Assembly: GCA_030066905.1 (NCBI GenBank)
Contig: JASJAR010000008.1
Span: 42,932-106,931, forward strand
Reading direction: 5' to 3'
Length of the DNA: 64,000 bases
Origin: Paracoccaceae bacterium
Lineage (GTDB): Bacteria; Pseudomonadota; Alphaproteobacteria; Rhodobacterales; Rhodobacteraceae
Shown here: in pieces, positions 5,101-13,996 of the stretch
How the letters are laid out: each line of letters opens with the position of its first letter
Position numbering within the stretch: the first letter of the stretch is position 1
Translations under genes and position numbers: made by a program
Notes under the pieces: generated by a model
What the model was told of the DNA's origin: nothing
Database searches by the model: none
The model's input: only the letters and a program-made list of their open reading frames with translations

Positions 5101-6519
5101 CTACCGGCGATGGTGAAAGAGCTGAAAGAGCCGCGCCTGGCGGTCGAAGGGTTCGGCCGGCGCGGCGGGCGTCTCGACAGCCCGTGCCATGACCCGGCGG
5201 GCGAGGCCCCAGGCCAGCGCGCCGAAAAGCACCCCGCCGGCGGCCTGACCGATGAGGACGCCGGGGGCGCCGAAAAGCGTGGCACCTGCGATGACGAAAG
5301 GGATCGTCCCGAGCGTATGACGGCCCCAGTTGATCAGCGTCGACCAGAACGGATGGCCGAGATTGTTGAACGCGGCATTGCCGACGAAGATCACCCCGTT
5401 GAAGAAGAACATCAGTGCCAGCGGCCCGCAGAAGAGAAAGATCAGGCTCCGGGTCACGCCTTCGGCCTCGAAAAGCCAGGCAATGGGCTCGCGCAGGGCG
5501 AAAAGCGCGCCCGAGACGAGAACGACCACCACCGCGCAGAAGATCAGCGCGTCGCGGAACGCCTCGCGCACCCGGTCGTGACGGCCCGCACCGTAGTTCT
5601 GCCCGATGATCGGGCCGACCGCGCCCGAAAGCGCAAAAAGAACCCCGAAGGCCACCGGCGTGATCCGGGCGACGATTGCCATGCCGGCCACCGCCGCCTC
5701 GCCGAACTCGGCCATCGACCGCGTCACATAGGCCTGGCCGATGGGTGTGGCGAGCTGGGTCAGGATCGCGGGGGCCGCGATGGCGGCGATGGGGCGGAAA
5801 TCGCCCAGGAGATCGGAGGCCCTCGGCCGGCCGAGCCCGCCATGGTCGCGAAAGATGAAATAGAGCGCCGTCGCTGCGATGCCGAACCGGGCCGCGACCG
5901 ACGCAAGCGCCGCCCCGACCAACTCGAGGTCGAGACCGAAAATCAGGATCGGGTCGAGGACGGCATTGATCGCCCCGCCGATGAGTGTCACCCACATCGC
6001 CTTTTGGGCTGCGCCATGGGCTCTGAGGATCGCCGATCCGACGATCCCGATGAGGAGGATCGGCATGGACGGAATGATGATCGAGAGATAGAGCACCGCG
6101 AGATCGAGCGTCTCGCCGCTCGCGCCGACGAGCCCGGCGATGGGGGCCAGGTTGACCCAGACAAGGGCGGCGAAGACCGTGCCGAAGGCGATCCCCCAGA
6201 GCATCGCGGTGGTCGCGCGGCGCCGGGCAAGCTCCCCGTCCCCGGCCCCGAGCGCGCGCGCCACCAGCGCGCCCGCGGCGATGGCCATGCCGATGCCGAA
6301 GGAGGTGGTGAAGAAAAGGATCGCGCCCGCATAACCCACCGCGGCGGCAAGCTCCGACTTGCCGAGCATCGAGATGAAAATCATGTCGACGAAATCGACG
6401 AGAAACACCGCCATCAGTCCGACCGACGCGGTGAGCGACATCACCGAAACGTGCCGAAAAAGGCTGCCGTCGAGGAACTTCGCCTGCTCGCTCAACGGCT
6501 GCCCCCCGGCGCTGCGCAA
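5101..6519 (-). CDS. MATE family efflux transporter
   Basis: 472-aa ORF with about 12 hydrophobic segments. The N-terminus KFLDGSLFRHVSVMSLTASVGLMAVFLVDFVDMIFISMLGKSELAAAVGYA is a typical MATE start. The start is TTG at 6519, with no in-frame ATG upstream of TM1. Confidence 0.85.
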   Translation of the reverse strand: MRSAGGQPLSEQAKFLDGSLFRHVSVMSLTASVGLMAVFLVDFVDMIFISMLGKSELAAAVGYAGAILFFTTSFGIGMAIAAGALVARALGAGDGELARRRATTAMLWGIAFGTVFAALVWVNLAPIAGLVGASGETLDLAVLYLSIIIPSMPILLIGIVGSAILRAHGAAQKAMWVTLIGGAINAVLDPILIFGLDLELVGAALASVAARFGIAATALYFIFRDHGGLGRPRASDLLGDFRPIAAIAAPAILTQLATPIGQAYVTRSMAEFGEAAVAGMAIVARITPVAFGVLFALSGAVGPIIGQNYGAGRHDRVREAFRDALIFCAVVVVLVSGALFALREPIAWLFEAEGVTRSLIFLFCGPLALMFFFNGVIFVGNAAFNNLGHPFWSTLINWGRHTLGTIPFVIAGATLFGAPGVLIGQAAGGVLFGALAWGLARRVMARAVETPAAPAEPFDRQARLFQLFHHRR

Positions 6520-6524
6520 AGCCG

Positions 6525-6588
6525 CTTCATCTTGGCGAAAATACCGCGGGGGAGGCGCGAACGCGCCGGGGGCGGAGCCCCCGTCTCC
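6525..6588 (-). repeat. family-2 hairpin repeat, intergenic copy (gltX 3' end / MATE leader)
   Basis: The minus strand reads GGGGGCtccGCCCCC GGCGCGttCGCGCC tCCCCGCGGTATTTTCGCCAAGATGAAG: two GC hairpins plus a T-run. It matches the copy inside xdhB (43135..43191) at about 26 of the 28 nt at the AAGATGAAG end, by eye, with the same hairpin layout. Confidence 0.7.
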
Positions 6589-6589
6589 A

Positions 6590-7915
6590 TCACCGCAACC
6601 CCGGCTTGACCTGCATGAGCGGCATCACATCGGCCATCTCCGGCCCCTTCGTGCGCCCCGTCACCGCGTGGCGGAGCGGCATGAAGAGCCCCCTGCCCTT
6701 GCGCCCGGTCGCCGCCTTCGCGGCAGAGGTCCAGGCCCCCCAGGTGTCGCCGTCATAGGGCGGCTCGCCGAGGAGCCCGAAGGCGGTTTCCACAAATGCC
6801 CGGTCCTCCTCGGCGACCTCCGGGATCGCGCCGCCCTCGAACACCTCCCACCAGCCATCGAGGTCCGAAAGCGTGGAGATGTTCTCCCGGCATACGGTCC
6901 AGAAATGAAGCTGAAGCGCGCCCGGAACGCCAAGGGCGTCGAGCTTGTCCTTGACCGCCGAGAGCGGCAGCCCCGCGAGGTGCCGGGCGGTCAGAGGCGC
7001 GAGATCGGCCTCGTCGAATTTCGTCGGCGCGGCCCCGAACCGGGCGATGTCAAAGCCCTCGACAAGCTCGGCGATCGAGCCCCGAAGTTCGACGGGGTCC
7101 GACGAGCCGAGCCGCGCCATCAGCGACAACAGCGCCATGGGTGCCACGCCCCGGGCCCGGAGGTCCCTGAGCGACAGGGTGCCGAGGCGCTTTGACAGCG
7201 CCTCCCCGCCGGGGCCCGTGAGAAGCGAGTGGTGGGCAAAGGCTGGGGGTGCTGCGCCAAGCGCCTCCATAATCTGAATTTGGGTCGCGGTGTTCGTCAC
7301 ATGGTCCGAGCCCCGTACGACATGGGTCACCCCCATTTCGGTGTCATCGACGACCGAGGCCAGGGTGTAGAGCACCTGCCCGTCCTGGCGGATGAGCACG
7401 GGGTCGGAGACCGATGCGGCGTCGATGGAGGTCTCCCCGAGGATGCCGTCTTTCCATTCGATCCGCGCATGATCGAGCTTGAAGCGCCAGACCCCCTGCC
7501 CCCGTTCGGCGCGGAGCTTGGCCTTTTCCTCGTCCGAAAGCGCCAGGGCGGCGCGGTCGTAGACCGGGGGCCGGCCCATGTTGAGTTGCTTCTTGCGCTT
7601 GAGATCGAGCTCGGTCGGTGTCTCGAAGGCCTCGTAGAACCGTCCCGCCGCGCGCAAAGTCTCGGCGGCGGCGGCGTAGCGGTCGAGCCGGGCGGACTGG
7701 CGCTCGACCCGGTCCCAGGTGAGGCCCAGCCAGTCGAGGTCTTCCATGATCGCGTCGGCGAACTCGGGCTTCGAGCGCTCGGGGTCGGTGTCGTCGAGCC
7801 TGAGGATGAAGGTGCCGCCGGCTTTCCGGGCGATGAGGTAGTTGAAAAGCGCGGTGCGGAGGTTGCCGATATGGAGGTAACCGGTGGGCGAGGGCGCAAA
7901 GCGGGTGACGGTCAT
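6590..7915 (-). CDS. gltX: glutamate--tRNA ligase (short, 441 aa type)
   Basis: Part of ORF 6590..8539(-). ATG at 7915 gives MTVTRFAPSPTGYLHIGNLRTALFNYL (HIGN class I signature), and ALSKRLG is the KMSKS-like motif. Confidence 0.9.
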   Translation of the reverse strand: MTVTRFAPSPTGYLHIGNLRTALFNYLIARKAGGTFILRLDDTDPERSKPEFADAIMEDLDWLGLTWDRVERQSARLDRYAAAAETLRAAGRFYEAFETPTELDLKRKKQLNMGRPPVYDRAALALSDEEKAKLRAERGQGVWRFKLDHARIEWKDGILGETSIDAASVSDPVLIRQDGQVLYTLASVVDDTEMGVTHVVRGSDHVTNTATQIQIMEALGAAPPAFAHHSLLTGPGGEALSKRLGTLSLRDLRARGVAPMALLSLMARLGSSDPVELRGSIAELVEGFDIARFGAAPTKFDEADLAPLTARHLAGLPLSAVKDKLDALGVPGALQLHFWTVCRENISTLSDLDGWWEVFEGGAIPEVAEEDRAFVETAFGLLGEPPYDGDTWGAWTSAAKAATGRKGRGLFMPLRHAVTGRTKGPEMADVMPLMQVKPGLR

Positions 7916-7978: not shown

Positions 7979-8383
7979 ATGCGATTTGCCGACGACACCG
8001 CCCCCGATGCGGCCGATTTCGAGGCCCTCGCCGGGGCCGCCCTCGCCGCGCTGCCGGAGGCGTTCCGCGATGCGGCCGCAAAGGTAGTGCTCCGGGTCGA
8101 GGATTTCGCTCCGGAGACGATCCTCGATGAAATGGGCATGGAAGACGCCTTCGAACTCACCGGGCTCTATGACGGCATCCCGCTCACCGAAAAGTCGGTG
8201 ATGGACCAGCCCCAGGGCCCCGACACGATCTGGCTTTTCCGCCGCCCGATCCTCGACGAATGGGCCGGCCGGGGCGATGTAACGCTGGGGGAGCTCGTCA
8301 CCCACGTGGTCGTCCACGAGCTGGCCCATCATTTCGGCTGGTCGGATGCGGATATCGCGACGGTGGATGAATGGTGGCGGTGA
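7979..8383 (+). CDS. zincin-like metallopeptidase family protein (DUF1025/Zincin_1-like)
   Basis: Tail of ORF 7229..8383(+). ATG at 7979 gives MRFADDTAPDAADFEALAG... and contains the HExxH motif VVHELAHHFGW. Confidence 0.65.
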   Translation: MRFADDTAPDAADFEALAGAALAALPEAFRDAAAKVVLRVEDFAPETILDEMGMEDAFELTGLYDGIPLTEKSVMDQPQGPDTIWLFRRPILDEWAGRGDVTLGELVTHVVVHELAHHFGWSDADIATVDEWWR

Positions 8384-8397
8384 GGGCGGGATCGAAC

Positions 8398-8577
8398 CGT
8401 TTTGGTCAGAATCGGGCGTTCGTTTGCCCGCCCCGATCCACAGCCCCCCCCCGCGTCCCGGGCTCGACCCGGGACCTCGATAGGCTTGGCTCTCCATTGG
8501 ATCGAGGCCCCGGATCAGGTCCGGGGCGCGTTTCGCCAAGGGCTGCCGGTGGAAGACCAGAGCGTCTCCTTCAGGCC
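8398..8577 (-). repeat. family-1 MITE-like double-hairpin repeat, copy 1
   Basis: The reverse complement aligns end to end with copies at 14044 and 18266. Shared parts are the hairpins CCCCGGAcctgaTCCGGGG and GTCCCGGGtcgagCCCGGGAC, the palindromic centre CCTCGAT...ATCGAGG, and imperfect TIRs (TTTTGG(C/T)C(T/A)GAA...). Confidence 0.8.
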
Positions 8578-8659
8578 AGTCACCCGCCTGGCCAAATGAA
8601 ACCCGCTTGCGCTGGTGGCGCTAACACCGCAGATAGGGAGTGCTGAGGAGGCCCGCGCC

Positions 8660-9610
8660 ATGCGCACCGACATTCTGACGATCACTTTGAACCCCACGGT
8701 CGACTTCGCGATGACCGCGCCGAAGATCGTCCCGGAGCTGAAACTGCGCTGTTCGGAGCCCCATGTGGACCCCGGCGGCGGCGGCATCAACGTCGCCCGG
8801 GCGATCCGGCTTCTGGGCGGTCAGGCGACGGCTCTCGTGGCCATCGGCGGGGCGACGGGGGCGCATCTTCTGCAACTTCTGGCCCTTGAGGGCGTGCCCA
8901 CGGTGGCCTTTCAGGGCCCCGGCGAAACCCGCCAATCGACCTCCGTCATCGATCTGTCGACGAAGGACCAGTTCCGTTTCGTCACGCCCGGCCCGGCCTG
9001 GCATCAGGAAGACGTGGACCGGGGCCTGCGCTCCATCGACCAGGCCGCGGGCGACGGCACGCTCGTGGTGCTCTCGGGCAGCCAGCCGCCGGGGGTCGCG
9101 AAGGATTTCCCCTCGATCCTGGCCGATCACGTCCGCGACCGGAAAGCCGAACTCATCGTCGACACCTCGGGGCCGGCGCTGTTTCACCTCGCCGAAGGGC
9201 CCCATGAAGCGGTCGCGGTGCTGAGAATGGACGGGCCCGAAGCCGAGGAGCTTGCGGGACGGGCGCTGCCGAACCGGGCCGATACCGCCGATTTCGCGCA
9301 GGAGCTTGTGAAACGGGGCGTGGCCCGGATCGTGATCGTCGCCCGCGGTGCCGACGGCTCGGTGATGGCCTCGGCGGACGGGCGCTGGCACGCGGTCGGC
9401 CCGGCGGTGGAGGTGATCTCGAAGGTCGGCGCGGGCGACAGTTTCGTCGGCGCCTTTGCCTATAGCCTCGCCCTGGGAGAACCGCTCCCCGACTGCCTCG
9501 CCCATGGGGTCGCCTCGGCGAGTGCGTCGGTGACGACCGAGGCGACACGGCTTTGCGAGCCGGAGACGGTGGCGGCGCTTAGAGCGGAGACCAAGGTGGA
9601 GGCGGTGTGA
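8660..9610 (+). CDS. PfkB-family sugar/hexose-phosphate kinase (1-phosphofructokinase / PfkB-2 like)
   Basis: ORF 8615..9610(+). ATG at 8660 gives MRTDILTITLNPTVD. Motifs GGGGINVARA and the C-terminal GAGDSFVGAF are the PfkB signatures. Confidence 0.75.
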   Translation: MRTDILTITLNPTVDFAMTAPKIVPELKLRCSEPHVDPGGGGINVARAIRLLGGQATALVAIGGATGAHLLQLLALEGVPTVAFQGPGETRQSTSVIDLSTKDQFRFVTPGPAWHQEDVDRGLRSIDQAAGDGTLVVLSGSQPPGVAKDFPSILADHVRDRKAELIVDTSGPALFHLAEGPHEAVAVLRMDGPEAEELAGRALPNRADTADFAQELVKRGVARIVIVARGADGSVMASADGRWHAVGPAVEVISKVGAGDSFVGAFAYSLALGEPLPDCLAHGVASASASVTTEATRLCEPETVAALRAETKVEAV

Positions 9611-9612
9611 GG

Positions 9613-9664
9613 CGGTATCCGCGCGCGGATACCGTGCCGGATATCGCGCGCGATATCCGGTTTT
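9613..9664 (+). terminator. twin perfect GC palindromes plus T-run (likely terminator of the kinase gene)
   Basis: CGGTATCCGCGCGCGGATACCG (9613-9634) is followed by CCGGATATCGCGCGCGATATCCGG (9637-9660) and then TTTT (9661-9664), 3 nt after the stop codon. Confidence 0.6.
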
Positions 9665-9680
9665 AATGTGGGAACAACGT

Positions 9681-10428
9681 CTACCAACCAGTCAGATTTG
9701 CATCCAGGTTAGTCGCTAGCGGATGACGGCTCAGAAACCGCTTGATCAGAACTTGACGAGCCTCCTCCGTATTCAAATCAAGAAGAATTCTACGTCACCA
9801 AAAATACTATTAACCAAAAAGCACCGATTAGGATTGGTACGAAGAATGAAAATACATTACCGCGCCGGCCGATACTGCTGCGTGACCCCGCTCCTTTGAT
9901 TGCTGGCAAAAGGCCAATTGGGTCAATCAAGTCTCGAACTCCGCGCGGCAAACATCTTTCTCCCTCGGGCCCGTCATATCTTGTTCGCCACTTCCTCACA
10001 GTCCTGCTCACGGCCTCTTGAGCAGCTAGAATACTAATGAAAGACACAACAGAAACCAATATCCCCGTCACAGAAAACGCAAAATTCACCATCCGTTGCG
10101 CTTCATCCATTCGACCTTGCGTGAGCGCAAATGCGGTGAAGAGGAAGGCTTGTAGTGTAACCAGCCAAGTAGTTCTTCAATTCACCAAAGTATCTTCGTG
10201 AACAACCTTTTCTCGATAGAGCTTGTAAATTTCGATTGATTCAGGTGTGAGAAATTTCTCTACATCGCTCATATTGCTTGATAGTAGCAATTTTGGTCGA
10301 TTGGGATAACTGACCTCAACAGGGTCGGAAAAGGTATCCTTCCACCACCGAACAACCCGGTTATTTTTGATAATGTTCAAGATCACCTCCGAGATCAGAT
10401 ACATACGATACTTCAATCTGAAAGACAA
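9681..10428 (-). pseudogene. disrupted gene for a ~245-aa 3-TM membrane protein of unknown family (listed as ORFs 10177..10428 and 9790..10110)
   Basis: Both listed ORFs are in the same frame: 10111..10176 is 66 nt, open, and encodes RTTWLVTLQAFLFTAFALTQGR. They are separated only by the TGA at 10177-10179. After the TAG at 9790, the +1 frame continues as RILLDLNTEEARQVLIKRFLSRHPLATNLDANLTGW to TAG at 9681. The codon usage is AT-rich. Confidence 0.4.
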
Positions 10429-10760
10429 TTAAACCGTTTTGCTCCGAGTTCCGCATCTTAAGTACATACTTATTGATCGCTATAATGAATTGTAATCCCA
10501 AGATAGTCCTTGCAATACGAAACGCAATCAATGATATCCATGAACATACCGTACATCGTCGAAGCCAATGGACAGATGGATGGAAGGCTTTTTTCTCGTC
10601 AGTTCCGCATGCCGTTTGATCGTCGTTTTGGTCGGGTTGACGTTCCAGTCCATCATCAAGCGGAAATTGTTACAGCCAATGATTACCATGCAACTGGGAA
10701 ACCTAGATGTTCATTTCTTGATAGCTTCGAAAGCACACTCAGTACGTAGATGAGAGACGC

Positions 10761-12419
10761 CTATCCCCTATCCCGCCACGCATTCGCAATCGGGTACCGC
10801 CGGTCGAGCCAGAATGCCCGCGGGGTGAGTCTTGTGCCCGGTGCCGATTGGAAGCGTTTGTATTCGGCAAGATAGATCAGGCGTTCGATCTTTGTGACCG
10901 TATCGCGGTCGAACCCCATCGCGACCACTTCAGCGACGGATTTCTCCTCGTCGATCAGCGCCTCCAGCATCACGTCGAGCTCCGCATAGGGCGGCAGGCT
11001 GTCTTCGTCCTTCTGGTCGGCGCGGAGTTCTGCCGTGGGGGGCTTGTCGATCACGCGCGGCGGGATCACATTGCCCGCCGGCCCCTTCATCCAGTCGCGG
11101 TGGTTGGCGTTCCTCCAGCGGCAGGTCTCGAAGACGCGGGTTTTGTAGAGGTCTTTTAAGGGGTTATAACCGCCGGCCATGTCGCCGTAGATCGTCGCGT
11201 AGCCCACCGCGACTTCGGATTTGTTGCCCGTGGTCAGAAGCATCTCGCCGAACTTGTTCGACAGGGCCATGAGGAGGAGGCCCCTTAGGCGGGATTGGAT
11301 GTTTTCTTCCGTAAGGTCTTCGGCGCGGCCGGAAAAAAGCGGCGCGAGCGCTTCGGTGACGGCGGCGCGGGGCCCGGCGATCGGCACCGTGTCGAGGCGG
11401 CAGCCGAGCGACTTTGCCACCGAGGCGGCGTCTTCGAGCGAGGTCGGAGAGGTGTATTCGGACGGCAACATTACGCAACGGACGTTCTGGGGCCCCAGGG
11501 CATCGGCGGCGATGGTGGCCACAAGCGCCGAATCCACCCCGCCCGAGAGGCCGAGGACGGCCCTTTCGAACCCGGTTTTGCGGAAGTAGTCGGCGAGGCT
11601 GAGGACCATCGCGCGGTAGTCCTGCTCCCAGGCGTCGGGGAAGACCTGGCGCGCGCCGGTTGCGGCGCGCCAGCCCTCGGGCGTCCGGGTGAAGTCGACA
11701 TGGACCACCGCCTCCTCGAACGCCGGCAGCGACACCGCGAGCGCCCCGCCGGGGTTCAGAACGAAGCTTGCCCCGTCGAAGACCTGATCGTCCTGGCCGC
11801 CGACCATGTTGAGATAGACAAGCGGCAGACCGGTCTCGACACTGCGCTCGACCATGAGGCCGAGGCGGCGGTCGAACTTGCCGCGGTAATAGGGCGAACC
11901 GTTGGGGACGAGAAGGAGTTCCGCCCCGCTCTCGGCGAGTGCCTCCGAGACGTCCGGCCACCAGGCATCTTCGCAGACCGGCGAGCCGATCCGCGCCGGG
12001 CCGATCCGGTAGGGGCCGGAGATCGGCCCCGGCGTGTAGAGCCGCACCTCGTCGAATACCGTCTCGTTGGGGAGATCGTGCTTGAGGATGCGGGCTTTCA
12101 CCGCGCCGTCTGCGAGGATGAAGTAGGTGTTGTAGAGGTTGCCGTCCTTCCGCCAGGGGCCCCCGATCCCGATCGCGGGACCGTCCGCACAATCTGCAGC
12201 CAGCGCCTCGATGGCCGCGACGCAAGACGTCTCGACCGCCGGCTTCATGACGAGATCCTGGGGCTGGTATCCGAGGATGAACATCTCGGCGAAGGCGATC
12301 ATGTCGGCGCCGGCGGCCTTCGCCTCCGCCCAGGCGCTGCGGGCCTTCTCGCCATTGCCGGCGACATCCCCGACGGTCGGGTTAAGCTGCGCCAGCGTCA
12401 GGCGAAATGTCTCGGCCAT
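10761..12419 (-). CDS. nadE: glutamine-dependent NAD+ synthetase
   Basis: 552-aa ORF with an N-terminal nitrilase/CN-hydrolase domain (MAETFRLTLAQLNPTVGDVAGN). The C-terminal synthetase domain has the SGGVDS P-loop (LGLSGGVDSALVA). Confidence 0.92.
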   Translation of the reverse strand: MAETFRLTLAQLNPTVGDVAGNGEKARSAWAEAKAAGADMIAFAEMFILGYQPQDLVMKPAVETSCVAAIEALAADCADGPAIGIGGPWRKDGNLYNTYFILADGAVKARILKHDLPNETVFDEVRLYTPGPISGPYRIGPARIGSPVCEDAWWPDVSEALAESGAELLLVPNGSPYYRGKFDRRLGLMVERSVETGLPLVYLNMVGGQDDQVFDGASFVLNPGGALAVSLPAFEEAVVHVDFTRTPEGWRAATGARQVFPDAWEQDYRAMVLSLADYFRKTGFERAVLGLSGGVDSALVATIAADALGPQNVRCVMLPSEYTSPTSLEDAASVAKSLGCRLDTVPIAGPRAAVTEALAPLFSGRAEDLTEENIQSRLRGLLLMALSNKFGEMLLTTGNKSEVAVGYATIYGDMAGGYNPLKDLYKTRVFETCRWRNANHRDWMKGPAGNVIPPRVIDKPPTAELRADQKDEDSLPPYAELDVMLEALIDEEKSVAEVVAMGFDRDTVTKIERLIYLAEYKRFQSAPGTRLTPRAFWLDRRYPIANAWRDRG

Positions 12420-12556
12420 GGTGCCTCCGGATGGATCGGGCGAGACTTAGCAGATGGTGGCGGGAGGAAAAGGCCGCACCCGAAACGTGTTGCGGGGCTT
12501 CGGGGGGGCCGGTAGATTGAGACCCGAACCGGGAAACGGGTGGGCGAGCGGTAGAG

Positions 12557-13996
12557 ATGACAGCATTCGCGACAGCGCTTCGGCGGGCCGGGGCGACAGG
12601 GATTGTGATCGTTCTGGCGGCGGGTATCGCCGCGGCGCAATCGGACGAGGTCGTCACCAAGCAGTATGACGACGGCGGCGTCTATCAGGGCACTTTCCGG
12701 GACGGCAAGCAGCACGGCACCGGCACCTACCGGCTGCCCAACGGCTATGTCTATACCGGCGACTGGGTGGACGGCGAGATTCGCGGCCAGGGCCGCGCGG
12801 AGTTTCCGAACGGCTCGGTCTACGAGGGCGAATTCGCCGCCGGCAAGCCCGAGGGCCGGGGCAAGATCACCTTCGCCGACGGCGGCACCTACGAGGGCGA
12901 ATGGGTCGATGGCAAGATCACCGGGACCGGCGTGGCGATTTACGCCAACGGGGTGCGCTATGAGGGCGGGTTCGTCGATGCGCTCCATGACGGACAGGGC
13001 CGGATGGAAAGCCCCAACGGCTATGTCTACGAAGGCCAGTGGGCCGGCGGGATCAAAGAGGGCAACGGCCGGATCACCTACCCGGACGGTGCGGTCTACG
13101 AGGGCGACCTGGTGCGCGGGGCGCGCGAGGGGCGCGGCACGCTGACGATGCCCGACGGGTTGACCTATGTCGGCGAATGGGCCGACGGACAGATCAACGG
13201 CACGGGCCGGCTGACCCAGCCAAATGGCGATGTCTACGAGGGCGAGCTTGTCGACGGCAAACGCCAGGGGACGGGCCGGGTGGTCTACGCCAACGGCGAT
13301 GTCTATGAAGGCACTTTCGAGAACGACCGCCGCCACGGCACCGGAACCTTTACCGGCACCGACGGCTATCTCTACACCGGTGCCTGGGTCGAAGGCCGGA
13401 TCGAGGGCGACGGCACGGTGACCTACCCCGACGGGTCGGTCTATGTCGGCACGTTCAAGGACGATCTCGCCGACGGGAGGGGCATGATCACCTATCCCGA
13501 CGGCAACACCTATGAAGGCGAATGGAAGGCCGGGGTGATCGAGGGCCAGGGCAAGGCGACCTATTCCAACGGGCTCGTCTACGAGGGCGGGTTCCGCAAC
13601 GCGCAGATGCACGGGGAAGGCACGATGACCTTCGCCGACGGCTACCGCTACGAAGGCGAATGGCAGGACGGCCAGCGCTGGGGGACGGGCACGGCCACCT
13701 ATTCCGACGGCACGGTTTACGAGGGCGGCTTCGTCGCCGGCCAGCGCGAGGGGATGGGGACGATCACCATGCCCGACGGCTTCACCTATACCGGCGCCTG
13801 GGTCGACGGCGAGATCGAAGGCCAAGGGGTAGCGACCTATGCCAATGGCGATGTCTATGAGGGGATGTTCGCCGCCGGCAAGCGCCAGGGGGAAGGGACG
13901 ATCCGCTATGCGAGCGGAGAGGTCCAGAGCGGGACCTGGACGAATGGGGCGTTGACGGAGCCTGCGGAGGAAGAACCGGCGACCGAGAGCCAGTAG
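12557..13996 (+). CDS. secreted MORN-repeat protein
   Basis: 479 aa with signal-like N-terminus MTAFATALRRAGATGIVIVLAAGIAAAQS. This is followed by about 19 tandem 23-aa units of the form Y.G.(W/F).(D/N)G...G.G.... Confidence 0.85.
   Translation: MTAFATALRRAGATGIVIVLAAGIAAAQSDEVVTKQYDDGGVYQGTFRDGKQHGTGTYRLPNGYVYTGDWVDGEIRGQGRAEFPNGSVYEGEFAAGKPEGRGKITFADGGTYEGEWVDGKITGTGVAIYANGVRYEGGFVDALHDGQGRMESPNGYVYEGQWAGGIKEGNGRITYPDGAVYEGDLVRGAREGRGTLTMPDGLTYVGEWADGQINGTGRLTQPNGDVYEGELVDGKRQGTGRVVYANGDVYEGTFENDRRHGTGTFTGTDGYLYTGAWVEGRIEGDGTVTYPDGSVYVGTFKDDLADGRGMITYPDGNTYEGEWKAGVIEGQGKATYSNGLVYEGGFRNAQMHGEGTMTFADGYRYEGEWQDGQRWGTGTATYSDGTVYEGGFVAGQREGMGTITMPDGFTYTGAWVDGEIEGQGVATYANGDVYEGMFAAGKRQGEGTIRYASGEVQSGTWTNGALTEPAEEEPATESQ

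Follow-up and report, generated by a model that had tools for sequence, protein, structure and literature searches.

A low-GC segment with an interrupted gene of an 8xMP-like membrane protein between the pfkB and nadE genes of a Paracoccaceae bacterium

Organization of the pfkB-nadE locus

In the window, i.e., the whole stretch of 64,000 nt that was analysed, a segment of low G+C content was found at positions 9665-10755, between two convergent housekeeping genes. The following features were annotated in this segment (hereafter, the island) and at its edges:

8615-9610, plus strand: pfkB, gene of a PfkB-family carbohydrate kinase, left flank, native (Pfam PF00294, E 5e-47)
9613-9664, plus strand: two back-to-back perfect GC-rich palindromes followed by TTTT (inverted-repeat and terminator-like match)
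9665-9789, no strand assigned: low-GC segment 3' of the membrane-protein gene, no recognisable content (45-52% G+C)
9790-10428, minus strand: 8xMP-like membrane-protein gene with one in-frame TGA (homologues, Pfam, hhalign, AlphaFold2)
10177-10179, minus strand: premature TGA, codon 84 of this gene (alignment to homologues)
10429-10755, no strand assigned: low-GC region upstream of the membrane-protein gene (35-52% G+C)
10510-10749, plus strand: orphan ORF, 79 aa (self-match only)
10528-10689, minus strand: orphan ORF, 53 aa (self-match only)
10761-12419, minus strand: nadE, gene of a glutamine-dependent NAD+ synthetase, right flank, native (Pfam)

The first-pass annotation, made from the sequence alone, had described this segment as an AT-rich island of about 1.1 kb and as the only clearly non-native DNA of the window, and had proposed a G+C scan and a comparison of the junction in related genomes as checks. 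The scan bore out the deviation from the flanks. The G+C content is 44.6% in 9665-10755 against 67.0% window-wide (1091-nt windows, SD 3.4%), and all 1091-nt windows with less than 58% G+C in the scan of the 64,000-nt window overlap the island. Two 60-nt blocks (9781-9840 and 10201-10260), for which about 35% G+C had been counted by hand, contain 35% each. In the whole 3.69-Mb assembly, 1-kb windows have a mean G+C content of 66.5% (SD 3.5), and values under 52% occur in no more than 12 regions. The codons of the island had been called AT-rich and foreign to this genome, which agrees with a codon position 3 G+C of 47% in the island gene versus 84-85% in pfkB and nadE. The non-gene parts of the island are as AT-rich as the rest of it.

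Both flanking genes were confirmed using Pfam and are intact to the C-termini of their products. The pfkB product is 84-86% identical to its orthologues in three genomes of the same genus, and the gene ends with a stop codon at 9608-9610. Palindromes at 9613-9634 and 9637-9660 come next, and then a T-run at 9661-9664; a terminator-like match was obtained for 9636-9661, directly before the T-run. These palindromes together with TTTT are probably the pfkB terminator and form the left edge of the low-GC segment. Both palindromes are single-copy in the 3.69-Mb assembly and are absent 3' of pfkB in the same-genus genomes. On the other side, nadE (NAD_synthase, E 1e-69; CN_hydrolase, E 4e-27) encodes a product that is 83-85% identical to the same-genus orthologues, and its stop codon occupies 10761-10763. 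Thus, the edges had been placed correctly, the left one after the twin palindromes and T-run 3' of pfkB and the right one 5 nt before the nadE stop.

The earlier statement that no integrase, tRNA or direct repeats accompany the island also held. No tRNA gene was found within 8000-13000, no direct or inverted repeats flank the island, and the island contains no integrase-sized ORF and no transposase. A recombinase gene, an att target and flanking direct repeats, by which an integrase-mediated genomic island is recognised, are all missing here.

The DNA of the island outside the membrane-protein gene was analysed separately. Comparison of 9665-9789 and 10429-10755 with the loci of homologues via blastn and tblastx revealed no similarity. 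The region 10429-10755 is presumably a promoter/leader brought in with the gene, or decayed DNA; it gave no sigma-70-like promoter match. A search among 5.8 billion proteins found no homologue of either orphan ORF beyond itself, and neither ORF has a Pfam or PADLOC match. The 53-aa ORF showed a by-eye likeness to a remnant of a ThsB-TIR gene, and this candidate was rejected because the ThsB-partner HMM scores it below the window background. The sole Rfam match in 9400-11000 is a sub-threshold, snoRNA-like chance match (E 0.18). The remaining ~450 bp of the island contain no detectable gene or RNA.

To place the island among related genomes, its DNA was searched for in 40 relatives, and no match was found. 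A homologue of the encoded protein was likewise absent from any position in three genomes of the same genus and four other members of the family; the same query recovers its own genome (E 7e-139). When 300 genera of the family were searched, a single further genome gave a reasonable match (39% identity). Throughout the family, pfkB and nadE form a conserved convergent pair, and the spacer between the two genes is hypervariable (0-1659 bp). The junction in the three same-genus genomes and in four other genera contains unrelated cargo or nothing. The spacers were as follows:

G022: 0 bp, two stop codons abut as TGATCA
G002: 300 bp
G003: 624 bp, 148-aa ORF, ~52% G+C, looks SnoaL-like by eye alone
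G014: 675 bp, 198-aa ORF with hydrophobic stretches
G012: 888 bp, 227-aa ORF, looks flavodoxin/WrbA-like by eye alone
G001: ~1.2 kb, 296-aa ORF, looks like a cation-efflux (cation-diffusion-facilitator) transporter by eye alone
G009: 1659 bp, two genes

The proposed comparison of the junction thus supported the non-native character of the segment, which is absent from the three same-genus genomes as DNA and as protein, with other cargo or none in a spacer of 0-1659 bp in relatives. Like classical genomic islands, this segment is compositionally foreign, lies between core genes and occupies a locus that is variable among relatives. It differs from classical genomic islands and integrative elements in that it is only 1.1 kb long, contains one gene and has no integrase, transposase, tRNA target or repeats. 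A match in phage and plasmid collections is lacking as well.

The interrupted gene and its family

Two minus-strand ORFs of the island, 10177-10428 (83 aa) and 9790-10110 (106 aa), share a common frame and are split by a single TGA. Read through this codon, the gene has 212 codons from TTG at 10428 or 204 codons from ATG at 10404, and it ends with TAG at 9790-9792. For the read-through product (P0001, 212 aa), 9 intact homologues of 152-251 aa were found among 5.8 billion proteins, the best of which shows 64% identity over 89% of the query. The alignment of P0001 with the intact homologues is continuous across the TGA. The column of this codon contains Trp in the four closest homologues and Phe in the others, and codon 84 is TGG in the closest relatives. 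It is located in the invariant motif H-E-D-T-L-x-N-[WF]-R-T (HEDTLVNWRT), directly before transmembrane helix 1.

Judging from this alignment, the lesion is a TGG to TGA nonsense mutation, and no further lesions are visible in the 212-codon frame. The earlier description of the island as decayed therefore holds for its gene, to the extent of one in-frame TGA. Trp is encoded by TGG at the five remaining positions of the ORF, and neither tRNA-Sec nor a tRNA with a UCA anticodon was found in the assembly; thus, the TGA is taken as a genuine nonsense codon. An alternative code in which TGA encodes Trp was rejected on account of these five TGG codons and the use of TGA as a stop by the host. Selenocysteine was rejected since homologues have Trp or Phe in this column and tRNA-Sec is missing from the assembly. 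In addition, the first-pass annotation had supposed a 1-nt frameshift at the 3' end of the gene. It is not needed, as the homologues stop 6-40 residues past the same point and their tails are unrelated. The codon position 3 G+C of 47% versus 84%, along with the single lesion, points to recent arrival and recent inactivation, and we infer that the gene is a recent pseudogene.

In order to determine the family of P0001, it was compared with Pfam. The only meaningful match was the 'Octameric membrane protein family (8xMP)' (PF24838; 23.9 bits, E 3.9e-5). It covers residues 66-133 of P0001, spanning the stop, and only model positions 2-70. The score was 27.8 bits in a six-frame search of the genome, so that P0001 remains below the PF24838 gathering cut-off (23.9-27.8 vs 30 bits). 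A precomputed PF24838 match is present in some close homologues. When 1.84 billion cluster representatives were searched with a profile, 2,532 relatives with E<=1e-3 were obtained, 400 of them with E<=1e-10; these are without exception small proteins. At E<=5, PF24838 was matched by 95 of 97 relatives, and at E<=1e-3 by 76; no other family was recurrent.

The alignment of these 97 sequences was then compared using hhalign with a canonical set of 18 8xMP proteins that score above the cut-off and were taken from genomes of the same class. The result was a probability of 96.5% (E 8e-10) over 148 columns, corresponding to P0001 residues 58-212. According to these sequence comparisons, P0001 is a member of a divergent branch of the 8xMP superfamily. 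The earlier view that nothing in the island belongs to a known family has to be corrected for the main ORF, which by the same comparisons represents a divergent branch of PF24838 with more than 2,500 cluster representatives. PHROGs and NCBIfam gave no match for P0001, and tblastn against phage and plasmid collections gave none either. PADLOC 2.0 matched neither P0001 nor its fragments nor the canonical 8xMP proteins. A published description of the function of the 8xMP family was not found in the literature.

The branch shares the layout of canonical 8xMP proteins, in which a membrane-adjacent helix bearing a motif of the E-I-Y-K-L type precedes membrane helices 1 and 2, and membrane helix 3 follows after a cytoplasmic loop. 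It differs in its own motifs (HEDTLVNWRT and LPAxKGxG) and in an N-terminal extension of ~60 aa. Like canonical 8xMP, which is sporadic in the class (18 of 301 genomes), the branch gene is a sporadic accessory gene; the copy in this genome is nonsense-mutated. In a scan of the class, weak family matches in two further genomes (G402 and G557) were also found to contain in-frame stops, and decay of such genes may thus be frequent.

Modeling of the read-through product using AlphaFold2 (97-sequence alignment, monomer) led to a confident model with pLDDT 91 and pTM 0.81. The predicted N-terminal helices are located at 5-33. Helix 62-103 comprises the membrane-adjacent motif and transmembrane helix 1, and helix 110-148 contains transmembrane helix 2 and is followed by a small hairpin and the conserved LPAxKGxG loop, while helix 185-211 represents transmembrane helix 3. 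The hydrophobic segments of the sequence are 86-103, 110-135 and 190-211. Conserved residues of the membrane-adjacent helix are Y68, R72, H77-E78-D79 and R85, and the cytoplasmic loop contains the conserved pattern RD..DP..LPAxKGxG. P0001 is thus predicted to be a small integral membrane protein with three transmembrane helices and a cytoplasmic N-terminal part. Basic residues are concentrated N-terminally and within the loop 136-184, which suggests an N-in, C-out topology by the positive-inside rule.

A search of the PDB by sequence and Foldseek searches against the PDB and BFVD gave no significant structural match. The best two BFVD matches were SLATT proteins, with non-significant E values of 0.15 and 0.93. 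SLATT effectors (CBASS; ThsH of Thoeris type VII) are likewise small, helical and membrane-embedded, and a cytoplasmic helix comes before their membrane helices. A relationship to SLATT was rejected, as hhalign against the SLATT_1 alignment gave 0.2% and no Pfam SLATT or DUF4231 match was obtained. The comparison with DUF2270, for which the profile was thin (two sequences), gave 0.5% for the branch and 0.8% for canonical 8xMP, and no PF10028 match was found among the 97 relatives at E<=5.

Genomic neighbours of the solitary branch and of canonical 8xMP

The genes of the branch were solitary at 11 of 11 loci, each being a singleton between housekeeping genes, and no conserved partner gene is shared across these loci. 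In Limibaculum, the gene is located between DsbA-like genes and an FAD oxidase, and in Marivita between rplP and rpmC; other loci lie beside thyX, beside hisF and after lysS. The G+C content of the solitary gene is 7-33 points under that of the rest of the locus in all 11 cases, with an extreme of 35.7% vs 68.7% (L047). Canonical 8xMP genes are also below their flanks in G+C content at 17 of 18 loci.

The neighbours distinguish the two groups. One third of the canonical 8xMP loci examined (6 of 18) have an immune-type neighbour (TIR, STING, SEFIR or AbiJ) within 1.5 kb, whereas no TIR, STING or Abi neighbour was found in the solitary-branch loci. At three of the canonical loci (L050, L052 and L062), a ThsB-type TIR gene is located directly upstream and overlaps the 8xMP start (PF08937, E 1e-9 to 1e-15; PADLOC ThsB). 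The others have a bSEFIR/TIR_2 neighbour (L072; PADLOC E 2e-59), a prok_STING-domain protein encoded directly downstream on the same strand (L063) and an AbiJ_NTD4 / PDC-S32 protein directly downstream (L056). The locus studied here, flanked by pfkB and nadE, lacks a TIR gene, and the ThsB HMM found nothing in the island.

Origin of the island and possible function

The best explanation of these data, to which we assign a probability of about 0.75, is that the island is recently acquired foreign DNA with one pseudogenised gene of the 8xMP branch, located at a neutral intergenic spot between pfkB and nadE. A small fragment gained by horizontal transfer, with a base composition not yet adapted to the host, would have entered between the two convergent genes, where insertions would do no harm. 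No integrase, repeats, tRNA, phage match or plasmid match was found, so the likeliest route would be illegitimate or flank-homology recombination of incoming DNA without an integrase. Transformation or gene-transfer-agent particles would be the obvious vehicles for such bacteria. The stop at codon 84 ends translation just before the first membrane helix.

It is unlikely that the gene is functional, the TGA being either a sequencing or assembly error or leaky, with near-cognate reading by tRNA-Trp inserting the ancestral Trp. Such a reading fits the presence of one lesion in 212 codons, in an alignment to intact homologues that is otherwise unbroken, as well as the folding of the read-through product at pLDDT 91, the location of the stop on a Trp codon, one transition from TGG, and the draft state of the assembly (55 contigs). 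However, TGA is a normal stop in this host, neither a suppressor nor a Sec tRNA is present, the ORF otherwise uses TGG for Trp (five codons), and other family matches (G402 and G557) have in-frame stops, so decay is common. If the TGA were an error or leaky, full-length protein would be produced, possibly in deliberately small amounts. Since canonical 8xMP often has an upstream overlapping ThsB-TIR gene, and ~330 bp of equally AT-rich DNA with orphan ORFs only is located upstream of the gene here, the island could also be regarded as the stump of a larger element, such as a two-gene defence operon (e.g., a TIR sensor and an 8xMP effector) or a mobile element. The second gene would in that case have decayed beyond recognition in 10429-10755. 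This was judged improbable: the ThsB-partner HMM scores the island below the window background, no such partner exists in 11 of 11 solitary-branch loci, a TIR gene of ~140 codons would not fit into 330 bp, and integrase, transposase, repeat and tRNA are all absent.

That the segment is not foreign, being either an old native spacer or a membrane-protein gene of unusual composition, is very improbable and is refuted by the presence/absence pattern in relatives. The segment is absent from the three same-genus and other family genomes, both at the junction and elsewhere, and one relative has a spacer of 0 bp. Family members are below host G+C everywhere, so part of the deficit could be intrinsic to the family, but the island is just as AT-rich outside its gene, and the codon position 3 G+C of the gene is 47% vs 84%. 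Finally, it is hardly credible that DNA of another organism was joined into the contig as an assembly chimera. Although the assembly is a draft (55 contigs, 94.7% complete), both flanks keep the family-conserved gene order with pfkB and nadE convergent, and neither flanking gene is truncated before its stop codon. For a chimera, two exact joins only 1.1 kb apart would be required, and there are no repeats that could have produced them.

As for the function of the family, a precedent among Thoeris systems is available from a 2025 preprint on TIR signalling. A ThsB gene and ThsF (DUF2270, a three-helix membrane protein) form a working system of type V; ThsF is activated by 3'cADPR and breaches the membrane, and it is predicted to be a circular homo-oligomeric channel with charged signal pockets between protomers (10.64898/2025.12.03.692087). 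Many further transmembrane effectors are among the 29 putative types in the same work (10.64898/2025.12.03.692087). ThsF is the closest working analogue of the 8xMP proteins, being small, having three membrane helices and being encoded beside a ThsB TIR gene, and the canonical 8xMP operons have the same ThsB-then-effector layout as ThsF systems. The differences are that no sequence homology with ThsF was detected (using a thin two-sequence DUF2270 profile) and that the locus studied here has no TIR gene. The position of one third of the canonical 8xMP genes beside ThsB-TIR, SEFIR, STING or AbiJ genes, three of them in overlapping operons, together with the ThsF precedent, suggests by analogy a membrane effector role of canonical 8xMP in bacterial immunity. 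This suggestion would concern the 8xMP family and draws on another branch; it would not extend to the dead copy found here, for which the question would arise only if the TGA were an error or were read through.

Under the preferred reading, a recently acquired and then inactivated 8xMP-branch gene, the intact protein would form a ring-like homo-oligomer in the inner membrane, in line with the octamer of the family name. By analogy with the neighbours of the canonical branch, it may have been a membrane-perturbing effector in conflicts with phages or other mobile elements. R72, H77, E78, D79 and R85, together with the loop R165-D166...D169-P170, could constitute a gating or ligand site, and opening of the ring would lead to a collapse of membrane integrity. 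The weakest step concerns the solitary branch, which has no sensor partner; its own N-terminal extension may sense the signal, or its role may be unrelated. It is possible, although doubtful, that the solitary HEDTLVNWRT branch is a self-contained membrane-acting conflict gene of the abortive-infection/toxin type, spread as a promoter-plus-gene cassette among high-GC Alphaproteobacteria. If this is true, such cassettes would land between housekeeping genes, even in ribosomal-protein and his clusters, without mobility genes of their own, and the inserts would stay strikingly AT-rich. The stop at Trp84 would then be a case of the host disarming a costly gene, or an attenuated allele in which UGA read-through restores Trp.

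For this genome, the finding has little consequence, as a dead copy of an accessory gene lies at a neutral insertion spot. The locus itself represents a commonplace accessory gene in decay rather than a new system, and it should be annotated as one 8xMP-like pseudogene instead of two hypothetical ORFs. The undescribed accessory function that had been proposed for it was overstated: the gene is a nonsense-mutated copy from a catalogued family, and the other ~450 bp have no detectable content. Both the association of 8xMP with immunity genes and the AT-rich solitary branch lie outside this window, and the recent catalogue of Thoeris effector types may already include them. The wider value of the locus is as a lead on the uncharacterised Pfam family 8xMP, whose canonical genes are located beside TIR, SEFIR, STING and AbiJ-type genes, and on its large solitary branch (~2,500 cluster representatives at E<=1e-3), which occurs as AT-rich single-gene inserts in GC-rich genomes.

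The pfkB–nadE junction in related genomes

Comparison of the junction in seven relatives (loci L014–L021) showed that the spacer between the convergent pfkB and nadE genes varies from 0 to 1659 bp. The cargo carried there differs between relatives and is unrelated and of a single-gene type, the 0 bp spacer having none. The junction is a recurrent hotspot for small cargo, without mobility genes. Judged by eye, the cargo included ORFs resembling cation-efflux, flavodoxin and SnoaL-like proteins, another marked by hydrophobic segments, and a 312-aa unknown adjoining a 141-aa ORF.

Twin perfect palindromes are located 3' of pfkB (positions 9613–9660 of the window), each present in one copy in the assembly. 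They were not found in the genomes of the same genus. C14:125831–125880 of the same genome shows 82% similarity to 49 nt of sequence that overlaps the palindromes. These palindromes may be a native terminator or may have been brought in with an earlier insert.

Low-GC patches and inserts elsewhere

The genome contains about a dozen small foreign low-GC patches. A second low-GC island (C17:6751–10750; G+C minimum of 43.7%) lies outside the window and encodes a 588-aa TIR_2-domain protein (E 5e-30). The TIR_2 gene adjoins an IrrE/M78 peptidase gene, with a DUF5906 (primase/helicase-like) gene upstream, and the island looks like a small mobile element with a defence gene. Four other patches outside the window have 43–47% G+C:

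C36:66488–66949
C14:2598–3059
C37:7831–9098
C4:50593–51618

Their orphan ORFs include two of 153 aa with hydrophobic stretches, and one patch encodes a Clp_N-domain protein. Two further ORFs were without a Pfam match, the Pfam scan covering one of the two.

Among the loci of the solitary 8xMP branch, the Marivita gene (L033, 3763–4413; L034, 3–497) lies between rplP and rpmC inside a cluster of ribosomal-protein genes and has 46–47% G+C versus 57–59% in its surroundings. An opposite-strand 206-aa gene adjoins it in L033, and L034 ends before the corresponding position. The rplP–rpmC interval in Marivita is an uncommon site for an accessory insert. The strongest G+C contrast among the 8xMP family loci examined was found in L047, where the family member (6001–6594) has 35.7% G+C versus 68.7% for the locus. 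It directly follows a His_biosynth (PF00977) gene in a histidine-biosynthesis gene cluster, where DUF3800 and HTH genes (one of each) are also located.

Two further weak 8xMP matches from the class scan (G402:C168:284–502 and G557:C19:31847–32071) contain in-frame stop codons, which suggests that family members frequently decay.

Canonical 8xMP genes and their neighbours

In Alphaproteobacteria, an immune-type gene was located beside the canonical Pfam 8xMP gene at 6 of 18 loci:

L050, L052, L062: ThsB-type TIR gene (ThsB_TIR), in an overlapping operon with 8xMP
L072: bSEFIR/TIR_2 gene, directly adjoining
L063: prok_STING gene, directly adjoining
L056: AbiJ_NTD4 / PADLOC PDC-S32 gene, directly adjoining

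PADLOC 2.0 has no model for an 8xMP partner of TIR, SEFIR, STING or AbiJ-type genes. By analogy, canonical 8xMP could be a Thoeris-like type of membrane effector, either undescribed or catalogued only lately.
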